64,000 nt of DNA from Candidatus Obscuribacteraceae bacterium. Its GTDB lineage: Bacteria; Cyanobacteriota; Vampirovibrionia; Obscuribacterales; Obscuribacteraceae. The stretch is from contig JBGAHS010000004.1 of assembly GCA_044226015.1 (NCBI GenBank), positions 256,001 to 320,000 of the forward strand, read 5' to 3'. The notes beneath the pieces were generated by a model. It did no database searches. It had not been told where the DNA came from and saw nothing but the letters and a program-made list of their open reading frames with translations. Both the position numbers and the translations under genes were made by a program. Below are positions 24,245 through 42,212 of this stretch, one piece after another; position 1 is the stretch's first letter, and every line of letters starts with the position of its first letter.

Positions 24245-24341
24245 TAGGCTCGATTGCTGCGTCTAATTGTGGTTAAGTTGTTTAACCGCAATTACCCTGT
24301 TGTCGTTCTTTCTGGGCATAATAGTCTGGGGAGAATTTGGC

Positions 24342-26936
24342 ATGTCTGAGGACGATACACGCAAAGCCAGGCAAAAGAAACGCACGAGTCAAAGTAAGCG
24401 GTTCGTGGCGCCTGATAATGTGCCAGAGGGTCAACCCTGGATTGGTGCGCCGCCAAAGGCGAAGCTAGACCAGGGCAAGGGTCCTTCGTCGCCTCCTGCT
24501 GCGAAGGCTCAGCCGCCCAGAGCTAATCCGTATTTGAATAAGTCGGCGGCTCCGCAGCAGAATCCTTCCAATCCGATGGTTCCCAATCCAAATATTCAGG
24601 GTGGAATTGTGGGACCACAAGCAGGATTTCCTCAGCAGCAGCAGAGACCAGTGAATCCTGCAGCACAGAATCCGTACGTGCAGGGCGCAACACAGCAAGG
24701 ACCACAAACAGGTTTTCCAATGCAGCAGCAAATGGCGGCGAATCCTGCAGCGCAAAATCCGTACGTGCAGGGAGCGCCACAACAGGGACCACAAACAGGG
24801 TTTCCGCAACGACAGCAGATGCCAGCGAATCCTGCAGCGCAAAATCCGTACGTGCAGGGAGCGCCACAACAGGGACCACAAACAGGTTTTCCTCAACAAG
24901 AGCAGATGCCAGCGAATCCTGCAGCGCAAAATCCGTACGTGCAGGGAGCGCCACAACAGGGACCACAAACAGGGTTTCCGCAACGACAGCAGATGCCAGC
25001 GAATCCTGCAGCGCAAAATCCGTACGTGCAGGGAGCGCCACAACAGGGACCACAAACAGGGTTTCCGCAACGACAGCAGATGCCCGCGAATCCTGCAGCG
25101 CAAAATCCGTACGTGCAGGGAGCGCCACAACAGGGACCACAAACAGGGTTTCCGCAGCAACAGCAAATGCCAGCGAATCCTGCAGCGCAAAATCCGTACG
25201 TGCAGGGAGCACCACAGCAGGGTCCGCAGACAGGTTTTCCGCAGCAACAGCAGATGCCAGCGAATCCTGCAGCGCAGAATCCGTACGTGCAAGGCGGACC
25301 ACAGCAAGGATCACAACAGCAAGGACCACAATCAGGTTTTCCAATGCAACAGCAGCAAATGCCAGCGAATCCTGCTGCGCAAAATCCGCATGTGCAAGGC
25401 GCACCACAGCAAGGATCACAGTCAGGTTTTCCACTGCAACAGCAGCAAATGCCAGCGAATCCTGCTGCGCAAAATCCTTATGTGCAGGGCGCACCACAGC
25501 AAGGACCGCAAACAGGGTTCCCAATGCAGCAGCCGCAGGCGAATCCTGCTGCGCAGAATCCGTACGTCCAGGGCGCACCACAGCAAGCACCACAAGCAGG
25601 TTTTCCACTGCAACAGCAGCAAATGCCTGCGAATCCCGCAGCGCAAAATCCGTATGTGCAGCGCGCACCACAACAAGGACTGCAATCAGTTTCTCCACAG
25701 CATGTGCCACCAAATACGACGGCGCAAAATCAATCTCAACCCACAGCGGACCCCTTCGATTTGAATCTGACTCCTGTCACTAAGCCGCCAGGTGTTATAA
25801 AAAGAACTGACTCTGTGAGAAAGGGAGCTGCACCTGCAGCGCCAGTTAGCAGGAAGCCTCGCCGCGTTACCAAAAATTGGTATTGGCCAGAAGAGGATGA
25901 AGATGCATGTGGGCAGAAGTTGTATCCGGCACCAGTTTTTTCCAAGCCGCTTTCTGCACCACTTGGACTATTGCGTGACGACGGTGAAGAAGAAGGCGAC
26001 TCCAAGAAGAGTGCGTTTGCCCAAGCTATTGATGATTACGATTATTCTCGCTCTCAGGTCAAAGATGAGAGCAAAGCGTTCGCACAGGTTATCGATGAGA
26101 TACTGAACCAAGCCATCGAAACTGACGTGGACGCCCGTGCTTGCATCGATAAATTAGCCCGCAGTTGTTCTGCCAAAACGGTTACGCGTGAGTTGACTGA
26201 GTTGGCGCCAAGAATCGCGAGTTTGGTAAAAGCAAACAAGGAGCTGCTCAGCGACCTGATTGAACTTTGTCGCGCTGTTGAACGCCAATGGCTTTCGGTC
26301 GATGGACTTACCAAAGTCTTCGAGCAGTTAAACCGACTGTACGATGCGCCAGTTCTTGGTAGCAGACGGCAATTGGTCGTTGAGCACTACTTGCGCGTTG
26401 TAGGGCGAGGGCTTGCAATCAAAAAGATTGAGCAAGAGCCGCTTGGTCAGATGGAATTGTGTGAAACGCTGCTCTTAAGCCGCTACCCCGACCGAGCTGC
26501 AGAATTCTTGCTGTCTGTGATGACTTCAAGTCGCATCAACAATGATGAACTCGCAATTCGTCCATTCAAGTTTGACCGAGATAAAGCGCGAACCGTTGTG
26601 AAGGTATCTCGTGATGCGCTTGAGCCAGAGCCAGCAATGCGGCAGTCAGAAAGTGTTTTTCAAAGCAACTATTTTTCGTTTCTTCTGAAGACCGTGGCAC
26701 TAAATGCGGTATTACAAGATTCCATGCCAACTAGCAGGTATATTCGGCGAAAAGGCAAAGACCTCATTTACAGCGTGTCTGAACAGGAAGTGAAGCCTGG
26801 TGTTTTTCGTGTTACTCCGTCGGCAACGCAAGAGTTTAGCGGATTAACGCTCGAACAAATGGCTTGGGTGAATAGGCAATTTGCCGGTGTGAAGCCGCGA
26901 CATAGCTTGCCCGACAAAGTAAAAATGTTCGACTAG
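24342..26936 (+). CDS. Hypothetical protein with a Q/P/N-rich tandem-repeat domain
   Basis: GGAG RBS before ATG 24342, twelve ~29-aa repeats, then a globular-looking C-terminal region. Confidence 0.75.
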   Translation: MSEDDTRKARQKKRTSQSKRFVAPDNVPEGQPWIGAPPKAKLDQGKGPSSPPAAKAQPPRANPYLNKSAAPQQNPSNPMVPNPNIQGGIVGPQAGFPQQQQRPVNPAAQNPYVQGATQQGPQTGFPMQQQMAANPAAQNPYVQGAPQQGPQTGFPQRQQMPANPAAQNPYVQGAPQQGPQTGFPQQEQMPANPAAQNPYVQGAPQQGPQTGFPQRQQMPANPAAQNPYVQGAPQQGPQTGFPQRQQMPANPAAQNPYVQGAPQQGPQTGFPQQQQMPANPAAQNPYVQGAPQQGPQTGFPQQQQMPANPAAQNPYVQGGPQQGSQQQGPQSGFPMQQQQMPANPAAQNPHVQGAPQQGSQSGFPLQQQQMPANPAAQNPYVQGAPQQGPQTGFPMQQPQANPAAQNPYVQGAPQQAPQAGFPLQQQQMPANPAAQNPYVQRAPQQGLQSVSPQHVPPNTTAQNQSQPTADPFDLNLTPVTKPPGVIKRTDSVRKGAAPAAPVSRKPRRVTKNWYWPEEDEDACGQKLYPAPVFSKPLSAPLGLLRDDGEEEGDSKKSAFAQAIDDYDYSRSQVKDESKAFAQVIDEILNQAIETDVDARACIDKLARSCSAKTVTRELTELAPRIASLVKANKELLSDLIELCRAVERQWLSVDGLTKVFEQLNRLYDAPVLGSRRQLVVEHYLRVVGRGLAIKKIEQEPLGQMELCETLLLSRYPDRAAEFLLSVMTSSRINNDELAIRPFKFDRDKARTVVKVSRDALEPEPAMRQSESVFQSNYFSFLLKTVALNAVLQDSMPTSRYIRRKGKDLIYSVSEQEVKPGVFRVTPSATQEFSGLTLEQMAWVNRQFAGVKPRHSLPDKVKMFD
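24650..25690 (+). repeat. Coding tandem repeat, 87-nt period, ~12 units
   Basis: Unit MPANPAAQNPYVQGAPQQGPQTGFPQxQQ. GAATCCTGCAGCGCA recurs every 87 nt from 24740 to 25262. Confidence 0.95.
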
Positions 26937-26968
26937 GGTGTAGGCTCGGAGATCCGACGGCTGCGGAC

Positions 26969-27061
26969 TCCAGGGCTGCTGAATCCAGGGCTGCTGAATC
27001 CAGGGACTGCTGAATCCAGGGACTGCTGAATCCAGGGACTGCTGAATCCAGGGCTGCTGAA
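26969..27061. repeat. Intergenic tandem repeat, 6 x 15/16 bp
   Basis: TCCAGGG(A)CTGCTGAA repeated six times. Confidence 0.95.
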
Positions 27062-27291
27062 TCTCAGTGCCGGAATCCGGCTTGAGCACTGTTCTTCTTT
27101 TGCGTTCGCTTACTTCGCCAACTAACAATAACAATGGATCCAATGGAAGCAACGGCAACATCCCCAGGAAAAAACAAGCGGGCTAGCTAAGCAGCCCGCA
27201 AGAGGGAGGAACGTTTGTGTGTGTGATCGACTTCCCTATCTGCTAGAATACCATACATACGACTGGTAAGGCAAACGGAAAACGGGCTGTC

Positions 27292-28056: not shown

Positions 28057-28067
28057 CGGCGTAGATT

Positions 28068-28240
28068 CGCCCGGAGTACGCGGTGATGGGACCGCATTGA
28101 TTAGGGATCCGCCCGGAGTACGCGGTGATGGGACTGCATAGATTAGGGATCCGCCCGGAGTACGCGGTGGTGGGACTGCATTGATTAGGGATCCGCCCGG
28201 AGTGCGCGGTGGTGGGACTGCATTGATTAGGGATCCGCCC
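28068..28240. repeat. Intergenic tandem repeat, 4 x 42 bp with an internal hairpin
   Basis: Unit CGCCCGGAGTACGCGGTGATGGGACCGCATTGATTAGGGATC, with no spacers between units. Confidence 0.95.
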
Positions 28241-28496: not shown

Positions 28497-30350
28497 ATGT
28501 CAGCCAAATCTAATGTAACGCCCGAACTTGAAAAAGCTGCCTCTGTCGATGTGTCAGGGTGCCAAAGAGGGTATGATTTTCCGAGTGCAAACGGAAATAC
28601 TTTGAATACTTTTGATATCAAGAGGCAAGAACCTGGCATGAACACACCAACAAGCCAAGCAAAAGAATACGAGCAGGGCGTTCTCTCGCTTTTGCATGCT
28701 AGAGCTGCTCAATTCGGCGACCGCGAGGCTTTTCGCATGAAAGAAGGTGGCGAGGTTCGTGCGGTCACATATTCACAGCTTTCTGAACGCACGCGTCAGC
28801 TAAGCTCGTACTTGATGGAAAAAGGGGTGAAGCAGGGCGATCGAATTGCCATTTTGAGTGAATCGAGACCGGAATGGGGCATCGCATTTTTCGGTTCAGT
28901 ACGCGCTGGAGCGACTATCGTTCCGCTTGACATAAAACTCACAGAGACAGAACTCGTGTCCATTCTCTCTGATTGCAGACCGAAGGCTATCATTTGCGAT
29001 AGCAAGCATCTGGAGCTGGCTCAACGCTTGCCGAAATCGGTTGACTCAATTGCAGACGTTTATTTGATTGAAGATGGAAAAGGTACAGAGCAGGTTAAAT
29101 CGATTGATCAGTTGCAAGCATCATCAATTCTCGAAGGCGTTCAGCGAAAGAACGATGAGGTTGCAGTTCTAGTCTACACTTCTGGTACTACCGGTAGTCC
29201 CAAGGGTGTCATGACCACTTTTGGAAACTTGATTTTTCAGATCAGCAGCTTCAAAGCTATTATCGACCTCTCGGAAAATGATCGTTTCCTTTCAGTATTG
29301 CCATTGAACCACTTGTTTGAGCTTACTGGCGGTTTCCTGGGTATTTTGAATGAAGGTGGAACTATTGTGTTCTGTCATTCGCTATTTCCGCAGGAAATCA
29401 TCAAAACGATGAAAGAAGAAAAGATCACCGGAATGATCGCAGTTCCCCTATTCTTCAAGTCTCTGAAGAGCGGAATCGAGCGCGAGGTTAAGCGCAAGGG
29501 TGAAGAGGCAATCGCTAGATTTCATGCAGGCATCGAAGCTGCGGGGCAGCTGCCGCTGGAAAAACGGCGCGAAATGTTTGCACCTGTTCTTGCTGAGTTG
29601 GGCGGACATTTGCGTGTATTAGTCAGTGGTGGTGCGCCGCTTGAAGTTGAAGTGGGCAAGTTCTTCCAATCAATCGGTATACCGATGTGTGAAGGGTATG
29701 GTCTTACTGAAACAAGCCCCGTCATCGCTGCGAATAGTTTGGTGGCAGCAAAAATTGGAAGTGTCGGCAAGCCGCTGAATGGTCTAGAAGTAAAAATTGC
29801 CAAAAAGACAGAGACCGATACCGAAGGTGAAATCATAACGCGCGGACCTCACATTATGGCTGGCTATCACAAGCGTGAAGACTTGACCAACGAAGCAATC
29901 GACTCTGAAGGTTGGTTCCACAGTGGTGACATTGGACACATTGATGAAGACGGTTTCTTGTTCATTACTGGAAGAATTAAGAATATGATTGTTCTTGGTG
30001 GTGGCAAAAAGATCTTCCCTGAAGAAGTTGAGGCTGCTTTTGGACCAGCCACGACGGTCAAAGAAGTTTGTGTGCTTGGAGCAAAAACTAAAGAAGGTGG
30101 CTTCAAGGGTGGAACCGAAGAAGTGTGCGTGGTGGCAGTGCCATCAGACGCTCTTGTCCATGAGCACAAGGACAACCCTCAAGCTATACAAGCCGCAATC
30201 AAAAAGGAATTAGACGGCTTGGCTGAACATCTCGCAGTGTACAAGCGCCCCACAAAACTAGTAATCAGCATGGAAGATCTTCCGAAGACAGTTACTCGCA
30301 AAATTAAACGCCCGGCCGTTCTTGAATGGTTGCAAACACAGGGAGCATAG
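28497..30350 (+). CDS. AMP-dependent long-chain acyl-CoA/ACP ligase
   Basis: YTSGTTGSPKGV, GYGLTETSP, FHSGDIG, TGRIKNMI and LPKTVTRKIKR motifs. Confidence 0.9.
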   Translation: MSAKSNVTPELEKAASVDVSGCQRGYDFPSANGNTLNTFDIKRQEPGMNTPTSQAKEYEQGVLSLLHARAAQFGDREAFRMKEGGEVRAVTYSQLSERTRQLSSYLMEKGVKQGDRIAILSESRPEWGIAFFGSVRAGATIVPLDIKLTETELVSILSDCRPKAIICDSKHLELAQRLPKSVDSIADVYLIEDGKGTEQVKSIDQLQASSILEGVQRKNDEVAVLVYTSGTTGSPKGVMTTFGNLIFQISSFKAIIDLSENDRFLSVLPLNHLFELTGGFLGILNEGGTIVFCHSLFPQEIIKTMKEEKITGMIAVPLFFKSLKSGIEREVKRKGEEAIARFHAGIEAAGQLPLEKRREMFAPVLAELGGHLRVLVSGGAPLEVEVGKFFQSIGIPMCEGYGLTETSPVIAANSLVAAKIGSVGKPLNGLEVKIAKKTETDTEGEIITRGPHIMAGYHKREDLTNEAIDSEGWFHSGDIGHIDEDGFLFITGRIKNMIVLGGGKKIFPEEVEAAFGPATTVKEVCVLGAKTKEGGFKGGTEEVCVVAVPSDALVHEHKDNPQAIQAAIKKELDGLAEHLAVYKRPTKLVISMEDLPKTVTRKIKRPAVLEWLQTQGA

Positions 30351-30357
30351 CACTCAG

Positions 30358-30936
30358 ATGGACAAAGGTGTCCTCATTCTGATTTGTCTGAACTTCATTT
30401 ACATTGCTCTTCTGCCTGTTATTTTTTTCAGAAAAGATGGAGGACTAAATCTGGGGTGGTTCGCTACTGCGCTTCCATTCGGGGTTTGCCCTCTGTCTTT
30501 AATCGCAACCTATTATGGTTATCTAGTTCGATTGACTGGTGTCAATACTCCGTGGGGAAGTTTCTCCGACACGGTGCCGATACTACTTTCTTGTTGCTCA
30601 ATCGCGTTGATTTCTTTCACTCTCGGAACACATCGCATACCGATAGCGCTATGGCACCAGGAAAATGACGCGCCGCAAAGCATAGTCACATTCGGACCCT
30701 ACAAATGGGTGAGACACCCGTTTTATACCTCCTTCATTGTAGCGTTCGCTTCAGCGTTTATTTATGCACCAAATGTGATGACAACAATCAGTTTGATCTA
30801 CGGTTTAGCTATTCTGAATTTTACTGCAGACCGCGAAGAGAAGCGCCTTTGTCAGTCTGATTTCGGAAAAGAATATGAGTCCTACATGTCGCGCACCGGA
30901 CGATTTCTTCCGAAATTTCTTGATTCTATAGGTTAG
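30358..30936 (+). CDS. ICMT/PEMT-family integral membrane methyltransferase
   Basis: Multiple TM segments with IVTFGPYKWVRHPFY, EEKRL...FGKEYESY..RTGRFLP. Confidence 0.85.
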   Translation: MDKGVLILICLNFIYIALLPVIFFRKDGGLNLGWFATALPFGVCPLSLIATYYGYLVRLTGVNTPWGSFSDTVPILLSCCSIALISFTLGTHRIPIALWHQENDAPQSIVTFGPYKWVRHPFYTSFIVAFASAFIYAPNVMTTISLIYGLAILNFTADREEKRLCQSDFGKEYESYMSRTGRFLPKFLDSIG

Positions 30937-30938
30937 TC

Positions 30939-31886
30939 ATGGACGCGTATATTGGAAGCTTGAGCTATTGCCTGGGAGAACAGAGCTACTCTCTGGATGA
31001 ATCAGCTGAAGCTGGGCGGCTAATTTCACCTGTGCAAGCCCTCAAAGATTCTGGTTTTGCCAATCACCGAATCTGCGCTGACAATCAATCTGCATACGAC
31101 CTGGCTCGTGATTGTGCCCGGCAGCTGTCTGACCTTGAAAAAGTCGGAGCCATCATTTATTCCACTTGTTTGCCATTGAATGGGAATTGCGGCGATGCTA
31201 CCTTGTTCGACCAGACCAGAGACGTAAAGTACTTGATGGATTTTCCTGCAAGTCACTTGCAATCAGAGTTTGGAATGAACGACGCTTTCGTTTTAGGCAT
31301 CAATCAGCAAGCCTGCACTGGAATGCTCGGTTCCATCAGGCTTGCACGCATGCTGCTCAACGACGATGAATCCATAGATTCTGTCCTCTGCATAACTGCC
31401 GACAGGTTTCCTTACGGCGCCAAGTACGAGCAAGCTTACAATCTCATTTCTGATGGAGCTGCAGCTACGATTGTCAGTCGAAAGCCTGGTCGATACAAAA
31501 TTCTTGCTTGCCACGGTATCACTAATGGTGGCTTGGCTCAGGCTAGTGATGAGGAAGCGGCTGGAACATACTTCGTTTATTGCAACAGGGTAATTCGCGA
31601 GACTCTGGCCAAGGCGCGCTTAGATTTGAGCGATATCTCCTGGATTATTCCGCAAAACATGAACAGCAAGGCGTGGCAAATTTTGGCTCGGCTTTTGAAA
31701 TTTGATGAGAACAAAGCATTCGCAGGAAGTCGGGCTGAACTGGGGCATGTTATCAGTGCAGACAACATGATAAATCTATCTCTTTTAACCCAAGGTGGCG
31801 GCGCAAAGTCTGGGCAATATTTACTGCTGATTATGGCTGGTTATGGCATGAACTGGCAGTGTGTGATTTTGGAGGCTTGCAAATGA
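30939..31886 (+). CDS. KAS III (FabH)-fold enzyme with an atypical active site
   Basis: QQACTG (Cys), SDGAAA, IIPQN in place of PHQAN, LGHVISAD in place of GNTS, and MAGYGMNW. Confidence 0.75.
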   Translation: MDAYIGSLSYCLGEQSYSLDESAEAGRLISPVQALKDSGFANHRICADNQSAYDLARDCARQLSDLEKVGAIIYSTCLPLNGNCGDATLFDQTRDVKYLMDFPASHLQSEFGMNDAFVLGINQQACTGMLGSIRLARMLLNDDESIDSVLCITADRFPYGAKYEQAYNLISDGAAATIVSRKPGRYKILACHGITNGGLAQASDEEAAGTYFVYCNRVIRETLAKARLDLSDISWIIPQNMNSKAWQILARLLKFDENKAFAGSRAELGHVISADNMINLSLLTQGGGAKSGQYLLLIMAGYGMNWQCVILEACK

Positions 31887-32743
31887 TTAGTCTCTCTGAC
31901 ACAGCCAAGAAATTGTCTGAACTCTCGACCAAAAACTATTTGAATCCATACACATACATAGACTGGGCTGCCGAAATGCCTCGAGAGCAGTGGTTTATGT
32001 CGCCAGAGCTAATTTCGATTTATGGCACAGAAACCTTTGAGAAATTGACAGAAAAAGAGCAGCAATTACTTTCCTTTTTTGAGGCAGTAAATTTCTTCAG
32101 CCTGAATATCCATGGCGAGAAGCCGCTTGTCGAGGGCTTAGCAAAACGACTTTATTCAAAGGAGCTGAAAGAGTTTGCTGTTTACCTGCATCATTTTCTT
32201 GATGAAGAGAATAAGCACATGATTTATTTTGGTGGATTTTGCCAGCGCTATGCGGGAAAAATCTATCGTGACCGAAAGCTCGTTATTCCCCGAGAATACG
32301 AGCCTGGTGAAGATGACTTTCTGTTCTTTGCAAAGGTGATGATATTCGAAGAACTTGTGGATATGTATAACATCAAGATGTCCAGTGATGAAAGACTCGA
32401 ACCCATTTCTCGAAAAATCAATCAGGTTCATCATGCGGAGGAAGCTCGGCATCTGGTTTTTGGGCGGCACATGGTTGAGCATCTGTTCCAGAAATATTCA
32501 TCTAGCTGGAGTCCTTCGACTCTAATAGCTATGCAAGACTATCTGAAAAACTATGTGGTCGCAACCTGGAAAGAGTATTACAATCCAGATGTGTATAAAG
32601 ATGCCTTGCTGGCGAGTCCCTATGAGCTTCTCGAGCAAGCGTGGAACTGTAGCGTGCAGCGCGAGCACCGAAAGAAGATTTCGTCCAGACTGTTGGATTA
32701 CCTTAAGCAGCGAAATATGATAGTGGAGTATCCTGAGTTATGA
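31883..32743 (+). CDS. AurF/CmlI-like diiron oxygenase
   Basis: NIHGE, DEENKH, IFEE and HHAEEARH diiron ligand pattern. Confidence 0.8.
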   Translation: MISLSDTAKKLSELSTKNYLNPYTYIDWAAEMPREQWFMSPELISIYGTETFEKLTEKEQQLLSFFEAVNFFSLNIHGEKPLVEGLAKRLYSKELKEFAVYLHHFLDEENKHMIYFGGFCQRYAGKIYRDRKLVIPREYEPGEDDFLFFAKVMIFEELVDMYNIKMSSDERLEPISRKINQVHHAEEARHLVFGRHMVEHLFQKYSSSWSPSTLIAMQDYLKNYVVATWKEYYNPDVYKDALLASPYELLEQAWNCSVQREHRKKISSRLLDYLKQRNMIVEYPEL

Positions 32744-32991
32744 AAAGCGAAGCAGAGTTTCGTGAATCACTACGCAATTGGATTCTCTCAAAGAATGCCA
32801 AGGTCAAGCCTGAAGATCTTGCTGATGACACCCCAATAATTGAACAGCGCATAATCACATCGTTGCAGCTTATGGATCTTATTCTTGAACTTGAAAAACT
32901 CACTGGAGAGCCTGTCGAAGTAGAAGAGCTAAAGCCCGGAGTTTTCAAAAATATCAACAGCATTTGTCAGAATTTCTTGAGGCGAGAATGA
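32740..32991 (+). CDS. Carrier protein 1 (putative aminoacyl carrier)
   Basis: 83 aa, acidic, with IITSLQLMDLILELE as the phosphopantetheine-Ser motif. Coupled to the ligase gene. Confidence 0.75.
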   Translation: MKSEAEFRESLRNWILSKNAKVKPEDLADDTPIIEQRIITSLQLMDLILELEKLTGEPVEVEELKPGVFKNINSICQNFLRRE

Positions 32992-33848
32992 GCATGGCTG
33001 CCTCAATTGACCCTATTGAACTAACTGAATTGCACTGGCAGGAATCTGGACAGGCTTCTTTTAGTGGGTCGCTTCTGAGGCTGTTTCGAAGGCTCGATGC
33101 TATGTTTTGCGATTGGGCGACAACTCTCAACTCGCAGGAATTTATGTTTCCTCCGTTCCTTTCAAGCAAGCAAATGAACAAGCTTGATTATTTCAAGTCG
33201 TTTCCACATCTCATAACCATTCCTGTCACGCTCGAAAGCTCTGCTGAAAATCTGCAAGCATTTGCCGACTCGCCGCTTGATGAAAACTATAATTTGAAAT
33301 TGCCTCAGTTGGCTGCAGCAAAACAGGTGCTGACACCTGCGGCGTGCTACCACTTTTACGATGAACTCGAAGGGGCACAGCTTAACTCAGGGCTCTATTT
33401 GACGACTAGATGTGTCTGTTATCGAAATGAGTTAGCCTATCAACCTCTGCGGCGGCAGTGGGCGTTTTCAATGCGTGAAATTGTATGTATTTCCAGTATT
33501 GATGAGGTTCAGAGCTTCCTTCAGGTCTTTGAGCAAAAATTGGCAGAGTATTTTGCCTTGAACAAGTTTCCTGTAAAATTTGAGTACGCAACTGACCCGT
33601 TTTTCAACCCCCGTTCAAATCCCAAATATTTGCTACAAAAACTTGAACCTGTGAAAAAAGAAATGATATACGACGGTCAGCTTTCGATTGGCTCATTGAA
33701 CTTTCATCGTAATTTTTTCGGTGAAACCTTTCAGATTTCACACAACAAAGAAGCCGCCTACACTGCTTGTGTCGCTTTTGGCATCGAGCGTTGGATGTAC
33801 ATGATTTTGAATGAACGTGGTTTGCAAGAAAATGGGTGGAGCTTCTGA
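32988..33848 (+). CDS. Amino acid:[carrier protein] ligase (class II SerRS-like, no tRNA-binding domain)
   Basis: YFKSFPH, PAACYH, CYRNE, FSMREIV, ATDPFF, SLNFHRNFFG and TACVAFGIERW motifs. Confidence 0.85.
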   Translation: MSMAASIDPIELTELHWQESGQASFSGSLLRLFRRLDAMFCDWATTLNSQEFMFPPFLSSKQMNKLDYFKSFPHLITIPVTLESSAENLQAFADSPLDENYNLKLPQLAAAKQVLTPAACYHFYDELEGAQLNSGLYLTTRCVCYRNELAYQPLRRQWAFSMREIVCISSIDEVQSFLQVFEQKLAEYFALNKFPVKFEYATDPFFNPRSNPKYLLQKLEPVKKEMIYDGQLSIGSLNFHRNFFGETFQISHNKEAAYTACVAFGIERWMYMILNERGLQENGWSF

Positions 33849-34813
33849 TGTCATCTTCTCTGGATATTGAAGCTATTGTGAAAGACGCTTACGCGGCTCT
33901 GGATGATGATGAACTTCAGAGAGCAATGGAGCTTGCCGCACTGCTTTTGGAAACGCGGCATGCTCGCGGCTTTGAAATTATGGCGCTCGCCCTGGAAAAG
34001 CAAGATCGATTTGAGGAAGCTATTGATTTGCTGAGAAAGGGCGTTTCGATTATTCCTGACGCTTACCCATTGTGGGAATTAATGGGAAATCTCTATTCCA
34101 AGGAAAAGGAATACGACAAGGCTGAAACTGCCTATGTGACTGCGCTTTCTTGCTATGGTTCTAACAGCGGTTCCATAACATACAACATGGCTGTGATGTT
34201 GCGTCACGCAGGAAAGGCGAAACAAGCATATACCGTCACTGAACATATTCAGGACCCCGCTCTTGCGGTCAAAGTAAATACTTTGCGGGTTTCACTTCTA
34301 AATAGTCTGCAGGAATACGAAGAAGCTGCAGAGCTCGCAAATCAACTTATAAACGAAATTATGTCACTGGAAGAACTCGGTGATGAAGATATGAAAGATC
34401 TCGCGCAAGTCTACGCAGAGCTTGGGCGAGCGATATATTTGGGAACAGGCAACAAACAAGGTGCATTCGAGAATGCCTGGAAGTCGTTAGAGTGGGAGCG
34501 CTCTGAGCCAACAGCACTATGGCTGGTGCGTGAGTTAATTGGTAGAAAGTCAGCCGACTCTCGTTGGTTCAGGTTGGAAGTAGAAGGTCACTGGTACTTC
34601 CCGCTTGAGCAAGGTAAGACGCCACCGAAGTTTCGGGTTACTTATGACATAGTCGCGGACAACATAGATGAAGCTATGATGTTTTCAAAGCATCTCGAGC
34701 CACCAGAAATACGCGAGTCCATGCAAGTGAAATCGGTGAGTGACCGCGGTTCTCATGCGCAATTCACTCAAGGACTCTACTGGCGCAGCCCCTATAATTT
34801 TGTAGTCGGCTAA
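33848..34813 (+). CDS. TPR protein
   Basis: Helical repeats such as DRFEEAIDLLRKGV and KEYDKAETAY. Confidence 0.7.
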   Translation: MSSSLDIEAIVKDAYAALDDDELQRAMELAALLLETRHARGFEIMALALEKQDRFEEAIDLLRKGVSIIPDAYPLWELMGNLYSKEKEYDKAETAYVTALSCYGSNSGSITYNMAVMLRHAGKAKQAYTVTEHIQDPALAVKVNTLRVSLLNSLQEYEEAAELANQLINEIMSLEELGDEDMKDLAQVYAELGRAIYLGTGNKQGAFENAWKSLEWERSEPTALWLVRELIGRKSADSRWFRLEVEGHWYFPLEQGKTPPKFRVTYDIVADNIDEAMMFSKHLEPPEIRESMQVKSVSDRGSHAQFTQGLYWRSPYNFVVG

Positions 34814-34814
34814 T

Positions 34815-35924
34815 ATGAATGAACCATCGATTCTTATCACCGGTGGAAACGGCTATGTCGGAGTCAATTTGGCCGAAGCTCTTTTGGCAGAGGGGCGATA
34901 TGCGATTCAGTTGTACTTACATGCTGTTGATCAGGCAGAACTTGAAAGCAAGGCTGAGCCTTTGCGCGAGCGATTTGCGACCTATGTTAATAGTGGACAG
35001 CTTGTGCTCATTGGCGGCGAATTGTCGAATGATCAACCGTTAACTTCGGTCTCTCCTTCTGGTATTAAACAGATTGTCCATTCGGCAGCTGTAACGCGAT
35101 TCAACGTGGAAGAGGAGCTTGCGAATAAAGTAAACATCTCAGGTTCAAGGCATGTGCTTGAGTTTGCGCGGCAATGTGAAAATTTAGAGTCTATTCAGTT
35201 TCTTTCTACTATTTACGCTGCTGGGCTTCGGACCGGAAAGGTAGCAGAGGAGAGGCTTGAAAAATCGACATTCTCAAATCATTATGAGCGTTCGAAATGG
35301 GAATCTGAAGAACTACTCTTTAAGGAGTTTTCTGACATGCCTTTCAATTTGATTCGAATTGCGACGCTCATCTCTGATAATGCTGCTGGAACTGTCAGTC
35401 AGCAAAATGCATTCCATAACACATTGAAGTTGTTTTACTACGGTCTTCTATCGATATTTCCAGGCGAAAAGACATGTCCCGTTTATTTTGTTACCGGTGA
35501 TTTTGTGATTAATTCGCTGCTCTCTATCATGCACAGTTCGGCTACTGCTAAGGTGTTTCACATTTGTCATCGCGATTTTGAAACAGCTCGCCTTGAGCAG
35601 TTGGTTGATACCGTATTTGATACTTTTGAAAAATATTCAGACTTTAAAACGAGGCGCGTCTTGAGACCTCTCTGGTCTGACGTGGAATCATTCGAACTTC
35701 TGCAAGAAGGCATTGGCGGCTTATCTAATGGAGTTATGTCTCAGGCGGTGTCGAGCGTTGCACCGTTTTCTCGGCAATTATTTGCCCCAAAAGAATTCTG
35801 CAATGACAATTTAAGGAGGGTGCTGCCTTCCTACGAGGCTGAAGATCCTCTTCTATTAATTTCAAACGCAGCGAAGTATCTCGCTGATACAAAGTGGGGG
35901 CGTTTGCTCAACCATGCTAAATGA
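34815..35924 (+). CDS. Extended SDR / thioester-reductase-like protein
   Basis: ITGGNGYVG, IVHSAA.T.F, VNISGS, FLST.Y and NHYERSKWESE (YxxxK). Confidence 0.8.
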   Translation: MNEPSILITGGNGYVGVNLAEALLAEGRYAIQLYLHAVDQAELESKAEPLRERFATYVNSGQLVLIGGELSNDQPLTSVSPSGIKQIVHSAAVTRFNVEEELANKVNISGSRHVLEFARQCENLESIQFLSTIYAAGLRTGKVAEERLEKSTFSNHYERSKWESEELLFKEFSDMPFNLIRIATLISDNAAGTVSQQNAFHNTLKLFYYGLLSIFPGEKTCPVYFVTGDFVINSLLSIMHSSATAKVFHICHRDFETARLEQLVDTVFDTFEKYSDFKTRRVLRPLWSDVESFELLQEGIGGLSNGVMSQAVSSVAPFSRQLFAPKEFCNDNLRRVLPSYEAEDPLLLISNAAKYLADTKWGRLLNHAK

Positions 35925-36534
35925 AGAAGAACTCTCAAACTATTTTTCAAACGAACTTGGCACTGAGTTGCGATTTTGTGTTCGTTTTGATGAAATTGTT
36001 ATGGAATGCTTGTCGGCGCCAGAACTGGCTTTGCTTACTGGGTTTAAGCATGAGAAAAAGCGAAGTTCTTGGTTGAGAGGGCGGGCGGCGTTGAAAGAAA
36101 TACTGAATGATGTCAGTTCGTCACGAGATACCGCAGCCTTTCCTGTTCCAAATCCTAAATGTTCTTTGAGTCATACAGATTCTGTGGCTGTCTGTGTAGC
36201 GCGTGTGAAAGGCTCAGGCGTGGGCATCGACATTGAGGGGGCAAGAGAAGTGCGTCCGCCGACGAAGAAATTCTACCTCACAGAAATTGAGCAAGAACAA
36301 ATGGATTGTTCATCGCAAGATGATCTACTTCGCATGTGGACAGTAAAAGAGTCGTTGTTTAAGGCAGACATGCAGAATGCTAACAAGACTGTTCTGAAGT
36401 ATGTAACTGAGAATGCGTCACTTTTCACGGGTGTAGCCACCAATGATGGTGTCAGCGGCAAGCTGTATTTTAAGTATGCAAGCAAAAAATTTGGGCAACA
36501 CTGGTTGTCGGTATCGATTGCGATACAGGAGTGA
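35914..36534 (+). CDS. Sfp-type 4'-phosphopantetheinyl transferase
   Basis: GRAALK, SLSHT, VGIDIE and WTVKESLFKA motifs. Confidence 0.9.
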   Translation: MLNEEELSNYFSNELGTELRFCVRFDEIVMECLSAPELALLTGFKHEKKRSSWLRGRAALKEILNDVSSSRDTAAFPVPNPKCSLSHTDSVAVCVARVKGSGVGIDIEGAREVRPPTKKFYLTEIEQEQMDCSSQDDLLRMWTVKESLFKADMQNANKTVLKYVTENASLFTGVATNDGVSGKLYFKYASKKFGQHWLSVSIAIQE

Positions 36535-36537
36535 GTC

Positions 36538-37104
36538 ATGAGCAACAAACTTAAAGAAAACGAACTCTGGTTGTTGAGTTTCTACAGGACTTCCGAAATT
36601 AGCGGTGCCTTGTTCTTTGGGCGTCTCTGCAAGTCTTTGCGGCCAGGACCGGTGCAGCATGATATGACCAAACACTTCTCCGATGAGGCGGTGCATTCAT
36701 GGCTTTGGACCGACTGTATCACGAAGATGGGTGCTAGCCCCTTGAAGCTTGCCGACTCATACCAAGATCAATATCTTTCTGTCGCGGGAATGCCTGCTAA
36801 CGTTATGGAAATTCTTGCGTTGACTCATGTTTTCGAAAAGCGGGTGATTCGTCAGTATGCTCTGCATTCGCGGGTTCCAGAGCTTCATGCTGAGATTTCT
36901 GAAACCCTGTCCAAAATAATGGATGATGAAAAGTGGCATCTCACTTGGGTTCATTCTGCCTTAGAAAGCATGGAACCAGAGTATGGCAAAGAATACATTG
37001 AGCAAACTATACAACGCTTCTGGGACGCAGATCAGGAGGTTTATTTACGAACTATGAAAGAACACGAAGAGCGAGTTCGAGATTTGGGGATGCTGCTAGA
37101 ATGA
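36538..37104 (+). CDS. Ferritin-like diiron protein
   Basis: SEISG...DEAVH...FE...DDEKWH (E/ExxH twice). Confidence 0.75.
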   Translation: MSNKLKENELWLLSFYRTSEISGALFFGRLCKSLRPGPVQHDMTKHFSDEAVHSWLWTDCITKMGASPLKLADSYQDQYLSVAGMPANVMEILALTHVFEKRVIRQYALHSRVPELHAEISETLSKIMDDEKWHLTWVHSALESMEPEYGKEYIEQTIQRFWDADQEVYLRTMKEHEERVRDLGMLLE

Positions 37105-37129
37105 TTCGTGGGCAAAGCGAGTAAAGCAG

Positions 37130-37360
37130 ATGGTTGAAAGCGAAGAATTTAGAGGACGAATCGCAAAGTTTTTGAAAATTGCGCCAGAGCGTGTCAAGGA
37201 TGATGCAATTTTGACTGAACTTGTGAATGATTCTTTTGCGCTGGTTGATATGGTGGTAGAGCTGCAAGAAGAATATGGTGCCAGGCTGACGCAAGAGAAT
37301 TTGAAGGATGTAAGAACCGTCAACGATCTCTATGTTCAGGTCCAAAGCCACTTGAAGTAA
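37130..37360 (+). CDS. Acyl carrier protein 2
   Basis: 76 aa with NDSFALVDMVVELQEEYG and VRTVNDL. Confidence 0.85.
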   Translation: MVESEEFRGRIAKFLKIAPERVKDDAILTELVNDSFALVDMVVELQEEYGARLTQENLKDVRTVNDLYVQVQSHLK

Positions 37361-37404: not shown

Positions 37405-37599
37405 CTGAAGCTCTAAAGTCCGAGCGCGAGGACCAAGCGCGAGCTGAAGCTCTAAAGTCTGAGCGTGAGGACCAAGCGAGAGCTGAAGCTCTAGAGTCCG
37501 AGCGTGAGGAGCAAGCGTGAGCTGAAGCTCTAAAGTCTGAGCGTCGGAACCCAGTCCGAGTTCAAGCTCTAAGGTCTGAGCGTGAGGACCAAGCGCGAG
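37405..37599. repeat. Intergenic tandem repeat, 5 x 39 bp, between convergent genes
   Basis: Unit CTGAAGCTCTAAAGTCyGAGCGyGAGGACCAAGCGCGAG. Confidence 0.9.
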
Positions 37600-37620
37600 C
37601 TTAACCTCTAATGCGCGAGT

Positions 37621-39099
37621 TCAAACTCTGTTGTTTTTACTTATAGATTCAGCAGCGCTTTTGTTGTTAGAGCGCTTAACTTCATCAATCATTCGCTCGA
37701 CTTGCTTGGAACCAAACAAATCATTTTGTTCTTTATATAGCTGTGCTGCTTTTTCGAGGTCCATCAAAGCGCCTTTATGGTCACCTAGATATTTTTTGCT
37801 TTGCCCTCTGAACTTGTAGGAAACAGGTAGATCTTGCTTGCGTTCGATTGAGTAATTGAAGTCATTTAGCGCTTCCTGGTATTGTTTTTTCACGATAAAT
37901 TCCAAGCCGCGATCTGCATAAGCTGTCGATCCCATGGGGTCAAGCTCGATTGATTTGCCAAAGTCTTTAATCGCATCGTTTGAACGTCCCAATCTAGAAT
38001 AGACCAGACCGCGAGCCTCAAAGAGAGCTGACACAGGTTTGTCGGAAAATTCGATTGCTTTTGTATAGTCGGAAATCGCTCTGTCACTTTGACCAATTGC
38101 AAGATGCGCTTTGGCGCGAAGTGCTAGTAAATTGGAATCTTTTGGACTTATTGCCAGCGCTTTATCGAGGTCTTCAATAGCATTGGAGAACGCGTTCATG
38201 TGCATGTAGACCGAAGCACGCCATTTGTAAGCTTCAAGACCATCGGGGTCGTCTTCCAGCGCTGAGGTGAATTCGCGAATAGCTTCGAGGTATTCGCCGC
38301 TTCTTTCTGCTGCCATGCCGCGTTCAATCAATTGCGCCGCAATGTCTTGTTTCTTGCCAAGTTTTAGTGACTTAGCAAAATGATCACGCAATTCCTTTTC
38401 TTCTTGAGTCTCTGGTCCATATTCCTTATCGAGGAATGAGCTATCCAGAGTTATTGCAGTGTTGAAGTCTCTCAGAGCCTCGGTATTTTTGTTCAGTTGT
38501 TTGAAGTACTTTGCTCGTAGTAAATATGCCTTAGCTTGCTTCGGGTCAAGCTGCAGTGCTTGTTCTAAATCGTTGATGGCTTTCTCTTTTTCGCCACGCG
38601 ATAGCTCGCAGTCAGCACGGCTTATAAACGCCAGTACAAATTTCGGATCTGCCTCAATCGCTGCGTTCAAGTCTCCCATTGCCTTTTCGTATAGTTTGAG
38701 ACCTGTGTATGCTCTGCCGCGACAGACGAGAACCGCGTTACGATTGGCTTTGTCTAGCTCGTACGCTTTGTCGAGATCTGCCAGTGACTCATCAAATTTC
38801 TCGAGTTCTAGAAGAGACAGTCCGCGTTGTAAGTAGAGCCCACCTTTTTTGGGATTGATTTTTATCGCATTGGTGAATTCAGCTACTGCTCCTAAAAAGT
38901 CAGCTTGTGAAAATCGCCCCAGCCCAGCTGCTGTAAGCCTTTCGACTTCGCTTGCAGGAAATGTGTTAACGGTAGGACCGTCCACGCGACTGGGTGGCGA
39001 CGGGGTATCGGCGTCATTGACTCTCGAAAATCCGGGGGTGCTGATGGTTGTGAGGCTGCTAGCAAGCGCTAGAAGGACCAGGATGGATTGCCTTAACAT
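37621..39099 (-). CDS. Secreted multi-TPR protein
   Basis: Signal peptide followed by many canonical TPR units. Confidence 0.85.
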   Translation of the reverse strand: MLRQSILVLLALASSLTTISTPGFSRVNDADTPSPPSRVDGPTVNTFPASEVERLTAAGLGRFSQADFLGAVAEFTNAIKINPKKGGLYLQRGLSLLELEKFDESLADLDKAYELDKANRNAVLVCRGRAYTGLKLYEKAMGDLNAAIEADPKFVLAFISRADCELSRGEKEKAINDLEQALQLDPKQAKAYLLRAKYFKQLNKNTEALRDFNTAITLDSSFLDKEYGPETQEEKELRDHFAKSLKLGKKQDIAAQLIERGMAAERSGEYLEAIREFTSALEDDPDGLEAYKWRASVYMHMNAFSNAIEDLDKALAISPKDSNLLALRAKAHLAIGQSDRAISDYTKAIEFSDKPVSALFEARGLVYSRLGRSNDAIKDFGKSIELDPMGSTAYADRGLEFIVKKQYQEALNDFNYSIERKQDLPVSYKFRGQSKKYLGDHKGALMDLEKAAQLYKEQNDLFGSKQVERMIDEVKRSNNKSAAESISKNNRV

Positions 39100-39418
39100 G
39101 TGCTTTGTTCACTCTTATATAGACCTCCGGTTATTCTAACCGCGCTTGGCGCTTGATATCGCGCTGATTTGGCGATTCTGAGATTAATTGAGCACTTGGA
39201 AAGCTGCTTTCAGTGCTGAGTCCGCTTCCAGCCGTCGGCTGTTTCTGTAGCTTCTCGCGATTCTTTTTTGTTTTGGATCCTGGGAGCGCCGCCATCCTGG
39301 CGGCTTCTCTCGGTGTCCTGTGTGAATGCTTTTGATTATCGGCATCTCGGCAAGCACGTTGTCTCCCGATCAATTATCATGAGTTCTGTTGTCTGATTCG
39401 GAATCAATACACGCTTCG

Positions 39419-40381
39419 ATGTTCTCTCTGATATTGGAAAAAATCGAGAAGTTGGCTATTGCGCTTGGGGTCGTTGTCGGTCCACTTTGTTTTCTTAGCT
39501 ACTTTGGTGCAAACAACGATTTCTTCGATTTGCTGAGCCATTTTAGACTTCAGTTTGCTTTGTGTTTTGTTCTCATTGCATTGGTTTTAGTTCGACGCAA
39601 AATCTACGCTCTGGCTTTTTTCCTTATGGCGGTTTCTGCTGCTCCTGATTTGCCACCATTTTTTCTGAAAGAAAAAGTCATGCAAGCCTCATCTACAAGC
39701 TCTCGTTTGCGAATCTTGCAGATGAATCTATGGTCTAAGCATGAACAATTCGAGAGAATACGAGCGTTAATTGAAAATTCAAACGCAGATCTGGTTGCCC
39801 TGGAGGAAGTTTCGCCTGAAGCAAAAATCTGGATGGCAGCCAACATGCAAACGAAGTATCCATACCAGATTTTGCACACCCGACCAGATTTCTTTGGAAT
39901 TGGGCTATTGAGCCGTTATCCACTCAAGAATTCCAAGCTGTTTTATAGCAAAATTGATCAAGCTCAGTCACCGCCAATGGTGACTACGGAGATTGAGGTC
40001 GATGGATGCAACATAGGAGTTCTGGTCGCTCATCTGCTTCCTCCCTTTGGGGAATATCATTTCACTATGGACAAAGCCATGATTCAGGCGATATCAGACT
40101 TTTGCAAAGATTACAAGGACAAAATAGTCGTAGGTGATTTGAATTTGAGTCAACACTCGTCTTTGTACAAGAAGCTGCTTAGAGACACTGCACTTAGCGA
40201 TAGCGCACGAGGATTTGGTTGGCATCCTACGTATCCCTCATTTACTAAATGTGGAATCTATATTGACCAGTGTCTGACTGGGGGTAACATCGTCGTTTTG
40301 GATAGAAAAAACGGACCATATTTTGGCTCCGATCATTTTCCGGTCGTTATTGATCTCGCGCTGCCGCATGGAACCAAGTAG
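39419..40381 (+). CDS. Membrane-anchored endonuclease/exonuclease/phosphatase (EEP) family protein
   Basis: QMNLW, DLVALEE, GIGLLSRYP, VVGDLN, IDQ and GSDHFPV motifs. Start codon uncertain. Confidence 0.85.
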   Translation: MFSLILEKIEKLAIALGVVVGPLCFLSYFGANNDFFDLLSHFRLQFALCFVLIALVLVRRKIYALAFFLMAVSAAPDLPPFFLKEKVMQASSTSSRLRILQMNLWSKHEQFERIRALIENSNADLVALEEVSPEAKIWMAANMQTKYPYQILHTRPDFFGIGLLSRYPLKNSKLFYSKIDQAQSPPMVTTEIEVDGCNIGVLVAHLLPPFGEYHFTMDKAMIQAISDFCKDYKDKIVVGDLNLSQHSSLYKKLLRDTALSDSARGFGWHPTYPSFTKCGIYIDQCLTGGNIVVLDRKNGPYFGSDHFPVVIDLALPHGTK

Positions 40382-40751
40382 TTTAAATGATTGTGCAGTT
40401 CATGCAGATTTCACACTTAAGTGGTGAACTGTTTTATAAGCTGAATTGGTTTCGTTTCTCCCGTTCCCCGTTTCAGCCGGTGCTGAGTGCGCCACCATCG
40501 TGGTGGCTGGCAGCTCTAAAAATCAGATTGACAGCACTTTTCGATTGAGTGATCTGACCTGCGACATTCGTTGGAACTTAAAGCTGCGTAAATTGAAAAT
40601 TGCTTAAGCATGTCGACCCTTTCCGGTTCTCTGTCGTCACGCAGTCAAAGTGAGAATAATGGAATGATGCATCTCTTTGCAAGTTGGTCAGACGCCCAGA
40701 TTATTAGCTATAATATGCTTTGGCGGTTTGAAACTGGTGGTCCGATCTAGA

Positions 40752-42206: not shown

Positions 42207-42212
42207 CCTTCA

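Follow-up and report, generated by a model that had tools for sequence, protein, structure and literature searches.

A widespread gene cluster predicted to join an N-oxidized glycine unit to a fatty chain

Eleven genes of a Candidatus Obscuribacteraceae bacterium (GTDB lineage Bacteria; Cyanobacteriota; Vampirovibrionia; Obscuribacterales; Obscuribacteraceae) were found to represent a biosynthetic cluster that is real and widespread, and whose lipid arm and joining step are not described in the literature searched. The genes lie at 28497-37360 of the window, by which is meant the whole stretch of 64,000 nucleotides that was analyzed (GenBank assembly GCA_044226015.1, contig JBGAHS010000004.1, positions 256,001 to 320,000 of the forward strand). 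All eleven open reading frames (ORFs) are on the + strand, with intergenic gaps of -11 to +25 bases (Table 1). The product is likely to unite an N-oxidized glycine with a fatty chain and to carry a cap derived from S-adenosylmethionine (SAM). Oxidation of the glycine unit to the nitronate level is judged a little more probable than the contrary, and the whole route proposed below, leading to an exported O-methyl-nitronate lipid with a fatty tail from the second of two carrier proteins (CP1 and CP2), is put forward tentatively. We infer every reaction and the product from what was observed, namely gene content, gene order, catalytic residues, two model folds and the context of related cassettes.

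An earlier note on this DNA, made by a model from the sequence, had described an eleven-gene operon and named a family for each gene; all eleven annotations were matched by Pfam and NCBIfam scans over the same span and strand. Most NCBIfam scores fell under the curated cut-offs, so that these matches denote family resemblance rather than equivalog calls. Conservation was examined in two sets of loci: a GTDB set fetched with a profile of the amino acid:carrier protein ligase (aa:CP ligase; the best 80 of 134 loci) and a metagenome set fetched independently with the gene for the small ferritin-like protein (the best 80 of 507 loci). Seven genes, encoding the KAS, the AurF-type oxygenase, CP1, the aa:CP ligase, the reductase of the short-chain dehydrogenase/reductase (SDR) type, the ferritin-like protein and CP2, were collinear in 51 of the 80 GTDB loci, and the five-gene run from KAS to SDR was collinear in 57; many GTDB loci lacking the full order are cut at contig ends. 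In the metagenome set, tblastn placed CP2 behind the ferritin gene in 71 of 80 loci, and seven of the other nine stop within ~130 bases of the ferritin gene. Conservation on this scale is not attributable to chance. The synteny that the earlier note had called for is thus present, and its view that an atypical KAS III, an R-domain-type reductase and two diiron enzymes form one pathway with no module of a nonribosomal peptide synthetase (NRPS) or polyketide synthase (PKS) is borne out.

The 51 collinear loci span 13 NCBI phylum labels, foremost Actinomycetota, Acidobacteriota, Bdellovibrionota and Myxococcota, in a patchy distribution. Of 104 genomes in the host family, 9 yielded an orthologue of the ferritin gene, as did 4 of 301 genomes of a phylum sample (at strong scores) and 2 of 151 genomes from the order of a Bdellovibrio isolate. 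That isolate, Bdellovibrio sp. HCB337 (L044), is one of at least one to carry the cluster on a complete chromosome; nearly all bearers are metagenome-assembled, and database names are generic. The nearest named homologues of the aa:CP ligase are from Obscuribacterales, so that the host is probably a relative of the cyanobacteria that does not photosynthesize. A quick tree of the KAS sorts partly by phylum (19 changes; the minimum is 11, and shuffling gave a mean of 44), which fits an old spread plus loss or transfer and proves neither.

Not every gene of the operon is conserved to this degree. The tetratricopeptide repeat (TPR) gene, which the earlier note had counted as a pathway member, was present in 3 of 80 GTDB and 0 of 80 metagenome loci and is missing from a locus of the same genus (L014); being this rare, it is a genus-level insertion and not part of the core. 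The gene for the 4'-phosphopantetheinyl transferase (PPTase) is missing from many complete loci. In one metagenome locus (L174) the order is complete except that the aa:CP ligase is missing between CP1 and SDR, and in locus L040 (2361-7936) genes for DUF3419, GNAT, radical SAM/SPASM and MMPL exporter proteins are inserted between the fatty-acid ligase and the KAS.

The putative glycine arm and its nitronate precedent

The aa:CP ligase, of 286 amino acids, consists of a catalytic core like that of seryl-tRNA synthetase (SerRS) without the tRNA-binding domain, and type-2 SerRS aligns to it only from SerRS residue 212 onward. Its best solved match is Bll0957 (3mey, E 3e-40). Three residues aligned to 3mey, C120, E164 and C261, which we take to bind zinc, are invariant in 39 of 39 rows. 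Ala263, which aligns to Bll0957 Ala281, is kept in 84 of 86 rows, the others having one gap and one Gly, and the enzyme is predicted from this alanine to be glycine-selective. The likeness to Bll0957 and Atu2573 (PDB 3MEY, 4H2W) extends to the core-only architecture, the Cys/Glu/Cys residues and an adjoining carrier; in the window, the CP1 gene overlaps the start codon of the ligase gene. Those two proteins adjoin genes for a redox enzyme and for liposaccharide, according to PMC2922099, whereas the genes linked with the window ligase are those of an N-oxygenase and a lipid arm. The biological role of aa:CP ligases is listed as unknown in a 2022 review (PMC9437257).

The predicted attachment residue of CP1, Ser41, is conserved in 95% or more of 77 rows. 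CP1 and CP2 belong to different carrier families: a CP1 profile scored 40-74 bits on the carriers of the nitronate-monooxygenase cassettes and of the methyltransferase cassette described below, and 12 bits on CP2. In the adjoining AurF-type oxygenase, the diiron ligands E79, E109, H112, E156, H183, E187 and H190 (3-His/4-Glu) are invariant in 67 of 67 sequences; a 3H/4C ligand set is stated for AurF and CmlI in PMC13108848. Its predicted model superimposed best on CmlI (Z 21.2, root mean square deviation (rmsd) 3.5, 266 aligned residues) and AurF (Z 20.0, rmsd 4.0, 278 aligned), with the next fold match at 16.1. By analogy with the cassettes described below, this enzyme is predicted to oxidize glycyl-CP1 to the nitronate.

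A search of named plasmids with the AurF-type oxygenase revealed such cassettes in cultured strains. In Tistrella mobilis, Streptomyces sp. NBC_01431 and Agrobacterium vitis F2/5, an oxygenase of the same AurF subfamily (profile E 5e-98, 6e-90 and 2e-70), a CP1-family carrier and an aa:CP ligase share a gene run with a nitronate-monooxygenase-family gene (PF03060), and two of the three cassettes also encode a FlK-type thioesterase, a type for small substituted acetyl thioesters. In Azospirillum argentinense, the genes ahead of the oxygenase, an NRPS and a PKS encode an adenylation (A) domain, a CP1-family carrier and a leucine-carboxyl methyltransferase; this layout resembles the akazaoxime/A-76356 cluster as it is set out in PMC9967187. 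Motifs gave no specificity assignment for the A domains of the Azospirillum and Nostoc cassettes. As a separate observation, the trio of AurF, CP1 and ligase genes on Streptomyces plasmids (L018 1501-16482, L194 8987-14605) follows a shared protein of 310-360 amino acids (31% identical), which had a weak transglutaminase-like match in one of the two, and in NBC_00335 the trio adjoins a type II PKS and pabB.

These layouts match that of the pathway of He & Ryan 2021 (Nat Chem, PMID 33782561), which passages of PMC9967187, PMC12183544 and PMC12154687 summarize as carrier-bound glycine, oxidation by a diiron oxygenase to the nitronate, and O-methylation; a denitrifying branch is named in the title of that paper as given in reference lists. 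Shared with the enteromycin carboxamide nitronate pathway and the denitrifying cassettes, as these are outlined in parts of PMC9967187 and PMC12183544, are an amino acid activated on a carrier, predicted here to be glycine, an adjoining AurF-type oxygenase and a SAM methyltransferase that would cap the product. Unlike those systems, the window cluster has a SerRS-like loader and a membrane ICMT-family methyltransferase, and it would hand the unit to a fatty-acyl arm, with a KAS III-type transferase and a stand-alone reductase in the place of an NRPS. A diiron-made, N-oxidized glycine (oxime or O-methyl nitronate) also serves as starter acyl in akazaoxime/A-76356 of Micromonospora humidisoli AKA109 and in althiomycin, to judge from excerpts of PMC9967187 and PMC3445576. 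Those systems are NRPS/PKS hybrids; the window cluster lacks a modular synthase, and its long-chain acyl arm and second diiron enzyme are additions. Judged by its layout, the AurF-CP1-ligase arm is of a known kind, with the glycine-derived nitronate pathway as its precedent; the combination that the earlier note did not recognize is in this part recognizable, and it is the lipid arm that went unmatched in the literature searched. Of 165 loci searched, one (that of Tistrella) yielded a nitronate monooxygenase; as none was detected in the other 164, the window cluster seems to belong to the methylating branch.

The predicted lipid arm, methyl cap and export

The new part of the cluster is the lipid arm, comprising the fatty-acid ligase, CP2, the ferritin-like diiron protein with a fold like that of aldehyde-deformylating oxygenase (ADO), the KAS, the reductase and the ICMT-type methyltransferase. 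Of the GTDB loci, 58 contain KAS, AurF and ferritin genes; 40 of these matched the window ligase query only and 7 matched FAAL only, 4 had the ligase together with an Aas acyltransferase domain, 3 had other mixes and 4 had none. Replacement of the fatty-acid ligase by FAAL or Aas types points to a fatty acyl-carrier supply, and the ligase is predicted from its family to load CP2 or coenzyme A (CoA).

Wherever CP2 was found, in 59 GTDB and 71 metagenome loci, the ferritin gene was present as well. The two are inverted together in L068, CP2 has moved with FAAL in L051, and it adjoins FAAL in several loci; the 3' block runs SDR-(PPTase)-ferritin-CP2, often followed by FAAL. The two carriers and two loading enzymes of the earlier note are therefore well founded, the carriers being of different families, CP2 being tied to the ferritin gene and the fatty-acid ligase being exchanged for FAAL or Aas types.

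The ferritin-like protein is the most conserved in the cluster, with a median identity of 61%, and its ligands E20, E50, H53, E100, E131 and H134 are invariant in 63 of 63 aligned homologues. Its model (pLDDT 91) has a ferritin-like fold, for which the top matches were tied at Z 17.9: 3ez0, of unknown function (rmsd 2.8, 183 aligned), and ADO 5ux2 (rmsd 2.6, 179 aligned, 14% identity). ADO-annotated chains made up four of the top six matches (Z 17.9, 16.7, 16.4 and 16.0), and a PaaA-like protein trailed by ~1 Z unit, at 13-16% identity. The best Foldseek E-values, ~1e-3, were for PaaA chains. A sequence search with the ferritin profile returned no ADO among its matches, a search of plasmids returned no match to the gene, and in the ESM Atlas only unnamed or generic ferritin-like clusters were met. 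A dedicated carrier is usually needed only for a chain that is modified while tethered, as in Jam/Cyl-type cassettes; on this ground oxidation of acyl-CP2 is favored, and the ferritin-like protein is predicted to oxidize the CP2-bound chain or its aldehyde. Apparent fusions of this protein to PPTase or SDR fragments (P0303, P0304) were rejected as frameshift artifacts, as their linkers look out-of-frame. Its nearest outside relative is a stand-alone cyanobacterial ferritin-like protein of ~290 amino acids with a DUF455 match, found in 33 of 301 phylum genomes (E 1e-10 to 1e-14); six of its loci (L186-L191) showed no cluster genes nearby.

In the KAS, C126, H270 and D275 are invariant in 66 of 66 sequences, and the protein aligns to the GHLGASD motif of ChlB3 rather than to the Cys-His-Asn triad of FabH: Gln239 stands at the FabH His position and His270 at the FabH Asn position. 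For ChlB3 the triad is C113/H296/D301, common to CerJ (PMC9573744). The KAS shares with both enzymes the Cys-His-Asp triad, an equal His-to-Asp spacing and loss of the FabH His/Asn; it is distant in sequence, and its predicted substrates are a glycine-derived unit and a fatty chain, not aryl or malonyl and sugar or ACP. The reductase has the Rossmann glycine motif and the Ser/Thr-Tyr-Lys set, with Y157 and K161 invariant, and TIGR01746 was matched in 63 of 63 members at scores below its cut-off. Its nearest solved chains are NRPS/PKS reductase (R) domains (6vtj, MxaA, 8v1x, AusA), followed by fatty acyl-CoA reductase. It is like the terminal module of MxaA (myxalamid) in its predicted R-domain-type reductive release, and differs in being free-standing and of another family. 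The pairing of a thioester reductase with an ADO-fold diiron protein likewise recalls cyanobacterial AAR/ADO, whose families are different; the fold match, as noted, is tied with non-ADO proteins.

The RHP-FY and EE motifs of the ICMT-type protein are kept in at least 95% of 50 rows. An ICMT gene was present in 46 of 80 GTDB loci, a DUF3419 gene (BtaA-like) stood instead in 14, and both occurred together in none; this exclusion is a hint rather than a statistic. Because the leucine-carboxyl methyltransferase and ICMT families are both carboxyl methyltransferases by name, and a nitronate resembles a carboxylate, the enzyme is predicted by analogy to be a nitronate O-methyltransferase. The earlier note had placed methylation at the membrane, for which an ICMT-type enzyme is indeed present, with the N-oxidized glycine unit a likelier target than a lipid alcohol. 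In the PPTase, G104-D106-E108 and W142-K145-E146 are kept. Exporter genes lay inside 21 of the 58 GTDB loci with KAS, AurF and ferritin genes. Downstream of the window operon (37621-45311), a TPR gene on the - strand is followed by an HlyD adaptor and an AcrB-like RND gene, neighbors that are repeated in loci of the same genus; the pair is a possible exporter, linked to the cluster by local synteny only.

Proposed route and rival explanations

In the proposed route, the PPTase would prime CP1 and CP2, as its family suggests, and the SerRS-like ligase would place glycine on CP1, the choice of glycine following from Ala263. The AurF-type enzyme and O2 would then convert glycyl-CP1 to nitroacetyl/nitronate-CP1, a reaction suggested by context and precedent for an enzyme whose fold and ligands come from model and alignment. 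Meanwhile the fatty-acid ligase would load CP2, the ferritin-like enzyme would oxidize the chain and the reductase would free it as an alcohol, as co-occurrence and family suggest. The KAS, with its observed Cys-His-Asp triad, would move nitroacetyl, a malonyl look-alike, from CP1 onto that hydroxyl in the manner of CerJ. This direction of transfer is proposed because oxidized glycine is the starter acyl group in akazaoxime/A-76356 (PMC9967187) and because CerJ uses a triad of this type to esterify a hydroxyl with malonyl (PMC9573744). Finally, the membrane ICMT-type enzyme may O-methylate the carboxylate-like nitronate, and the lipid may leave via the neighboring exporter.

Several observations weigh against this route. 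The choice of glycine depends on Ala281 restricting Bll0957 to this amino acid, as it reportedly does. Identity between the window oxygenase and the enzymes of the plasmid cassettes is only 32-39%, and a fast tree puts the former in a sister group and not in their clade; its oxidation level may therefore differ. PF03060 also takes in FabK-like reductases (TIGR03151 E 7e-35, below cut-off), and the cluster was set against the enteromycin pathway, as an analogy, by cassette layout and published summaries rather than by oxygenase orthology. By sequence the reductase is nearer to R domains such as that of MxaA than to fatty acyl-CoA reductases, so that release from CP1 would fit equally well. No more than two changes on the ligase tree are required to explain the exchange of ICMT for DUF3419 (sign test p 0.5), and limited queries found no exporter in 37 of the 58 loci. 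In four loci (L082, L084, L090, L091), KAS, SDR, DUF3419, CP1, AurF and ligase are present and ferritin and CP2 were undetected, and in an Archangium variant AurF is missing although KAS, SDR, CP1 and ligase are retained. Of the former four, two have FAAL and two an ABC permease with GNAT. The Archangium-type loci (L094-L096, L098) encode a ligase, an acyl carrier protein (ACP), a PPTase, a KAS, an SDR, a CP1-like carrier, an aa:CP ligase, a weakly desaturase-like ferritin and FAAL; their product may be an un-oxidized N-acylethanolamine. No similarity was detected between the small ferritin protein and the Archangium desaturase-like protein.

The position of the acyl bond distinguishes the principal alternatives. 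The cluster might operate as a dissociated NRPS-like module. Oxidation would then end at N-hydroxyglycyl-CP1, the KAS would attach the CP2 chain to its nitrogen, giving a hydroxamate, and reductive release would yield an N-acyl-N-hydroxy-ethanolamine or aldehyde, with the hydroxamate oxygen as the site of methylation by the ICMT. We consider this unlikely, although it is the strongest of the rivals. The reductase is closest to NRPS R domains, including that of MxaA, which releases N-acyl amino alcohols; KAS-SDR-CP1-ligase is retained where AurF or CP2 is missing; an O-aminocarboxypropyl cap from the BtaA-like DUF3419 enzyme would presumably be stable on a hydroxamate; and ChlB3/CerJ-type enzymes make C-N, C-O and C-S bonds (PMC9573744). 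Set against this are the neighbors of the oxygenase subfamily elsewhere, which are nitronate-monooxygenase-family and carboxyl-methyltransferase genes, and its chemistry, since AurF and CmlI proceed to nitro and characterized FDO N-oxygenases yield nitroso, nitro, nitronate or azoxy. The N-acyl amino alcohol of the earlier note is thus one of three possible joins and is not favored. The third join would be a carbon-carbon bond, formed when a fatty acyl group on KAS Cys126 C-acylates the nitronate carbanion of nitroacetyl-CP1 in a nitro-Claisen reaction; the reductase would free a 1-hydroxy-2-nitro-3-oxoalkane, shaped like 3-ketosphinganine, and the ICMT would O-methylate it. Such a route would use all core genes, would suit the R-domain match through release from CP1, and would explain a KAS that has kept its cysteine and lost the FabH decarboxylation His/Asn, as expected if the nucleophile needs no decarboxylation. 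The KAS triad, on the other hand, matches heteroatom acyltransferases (PMC9573744), 2-nitro-3-oxo thioesters are labile by general chemistry, and no precedent was found in the literature searched, which leaves this join improbable. Just as doubtful is its consequence, a nitro-sphingoid lipid made in a dozen phyla without pyridoxal phosphate (PLP) or a modular synthase, with nitronate in place of malonyl and bearing a reactive O-methyl nitronate.

The end state of the glycine unit or of the chain could also be different. Like those of althiomycin and akazaoxime, the unit may finish as an oxime, and/or the ferritin-like protein may be an ADO that removes the aldehyde carbon left by the reductase as formate, as in cyanobacterial AAR/ADO. 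An AurF-like protein, Alb2/AlmD, is proposed to form the althiomycin oxime (PMC3445576), and the prevalence of ADO chains among the top six folds and the position of the ferritin gene directly after the reductase or after the PPTase speak for deformylation. The tie with a protein of unknown function, the PaaA-like protein close behind and the lack of ADO in the sequence search speak against it, and the joint non-detection of ferritin and CP2 in four loci and their joint inversion in L068 argue for a CP2-bound substrate; the proposal has a poor chance of being right. Slightly poorer still is the chance that the cluster is already characterized outside the search coverage, or that its product is an unrelated one, for example a desaturated N-acylglycine lipid. 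A full-text search that included 11 of the 15 supplements of PMC13061610, with subscription journals mostly outside its coverage, found no paper on this gene set, and the text or supplements of He & Ryan 2021 may list the cassette type; nearly all bearers, as noted, are metagenome-assembled under generic names, which argues against an existing description. An Ole-type beta-lactone route was rejected on the exchange of the ligase for FAAL/Aas types and on an SDR nearer to R domains than to OleD; OleC was not among the 25 ligase families listed, which is no exclusion in itself. A diazo (Dob3-type) route was rejected in that no hydrazine-forming genes were among the recurring neighbors.

Setting of the locus and significance

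The genes of the operon are collected in Table 1. In a DNA run from a separate study (X2), a single contig spans 28211-37440 with 62 differences to the window; because this contig covers the whole operon, the layout is not an assembly artifact. Of the differences listed, 26 cluster at 35744-36118, at the end of the SDR gene and the start of the PPTase gene, possibly a recombined patch, and among the rows listed, beside 109 further ones, no X2 difference falls between 28006 and 35743.

Table 1. Genes of the operon in the window
Feature	Coordinates	Strand	Evidence
Long-chain fatty acid ligase (AMP-forming)	28497..30350	+	PF00501 AMP-binding E 1e-85; best NCBIfam PRK06187, long-chain-fatty-acid--CoA ligase
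ICMT-family membrane carboxyl-type methyltransferase	30358..30936	+	PF04140 8e-07; NF040696 isopcys_mtase 3e-17
KAS III-fold acyltransferase	30939..31886	+	ACP_syn_III + ACP_syn_III_C; triad Cys126-His270-Asp275
AurF/CmlI-type diiron N-oxygenase	31883..32743	+	PF11583 AurF 2e-36
Carrier protein 1 (CP1), predicted aminoacyl carrier, Ser41	32740..32991	+	PF00550 PP-binding
SerRS-like amino acid:carrier protein ligase	32988..33848	+	tRNA-synt_2b; PRK07080 amino acid--[ACP] ligase 1e-38
TPR protein	33848..34813	+	TPR Pfams
Stand-alone thioester reductase, R-domain-type extended SDR	34815..35924	+	PF07993 NAD_binding_4 4e-26; TIGR01746
4'-Phosphopantetheinyl transferase (PPTase), accessory	35914..36534	+	PF01648 ACPS
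Small ferritin-like diiron protein, 2-His/4-Glu	36538..37104	+	weak family matches (DUF455); predicted fold
Carrier protein 2 (CP2), predicted acyl carrier, Ser35	37130..37360	+	PF00550; ACP models

The GC content of the operon is not distinctive, most window bins being 44-50% GC. Tandem repeats lie on both sides of it, at 28064-28240 (42 bases x 4.2) and 37405-37611 (39 bases x 5.3), and X2 is without 78 bases, or two repeat units, at 37440-37519. Farther upstream are a 16-base x 6.8 array (26959-27063) and an ORF of 889 amino acids (24267-26936) with a Gln/Pro-rich repeat of 29 residues (87-base unit, ~8 copies) and no Pfam match. A promoter scan of the + strand found nothing promoter-like 5' of the first operon gene, and terminators were under the shuffled mean. 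In two metatranscriptome runs of one study, for which there was no silent control, contigs covered parts of the fatty-acid ligase, ICMT, KAS, AurF and CP1/aa:CP ligase genes, one of them crossing the ligase-ICMT junction (30263-30694); the 3' half of the operon gave no contig in those two runs.

O-Methyl nitronates have precedent in a few antibiotics from actinomycetes. If the proposed route is correct, nitro-lipids would be far commoner than lipid surveys suggest, as the gene order is kept across 13 phylum labels in mostly uncultured bacteria, and SerRS-like aa:CP ligases would gain a defined product. New chemistry would be added to three families: methylation of a nitronate by an ICMT, transfer of nitroacetyl by a CerJ-type enzyme and action of a small diiron protein on a fatty chain. 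The eleven genes are small and their products mostly soluble, which makes reconstitution of the pathway in vitro feasible.

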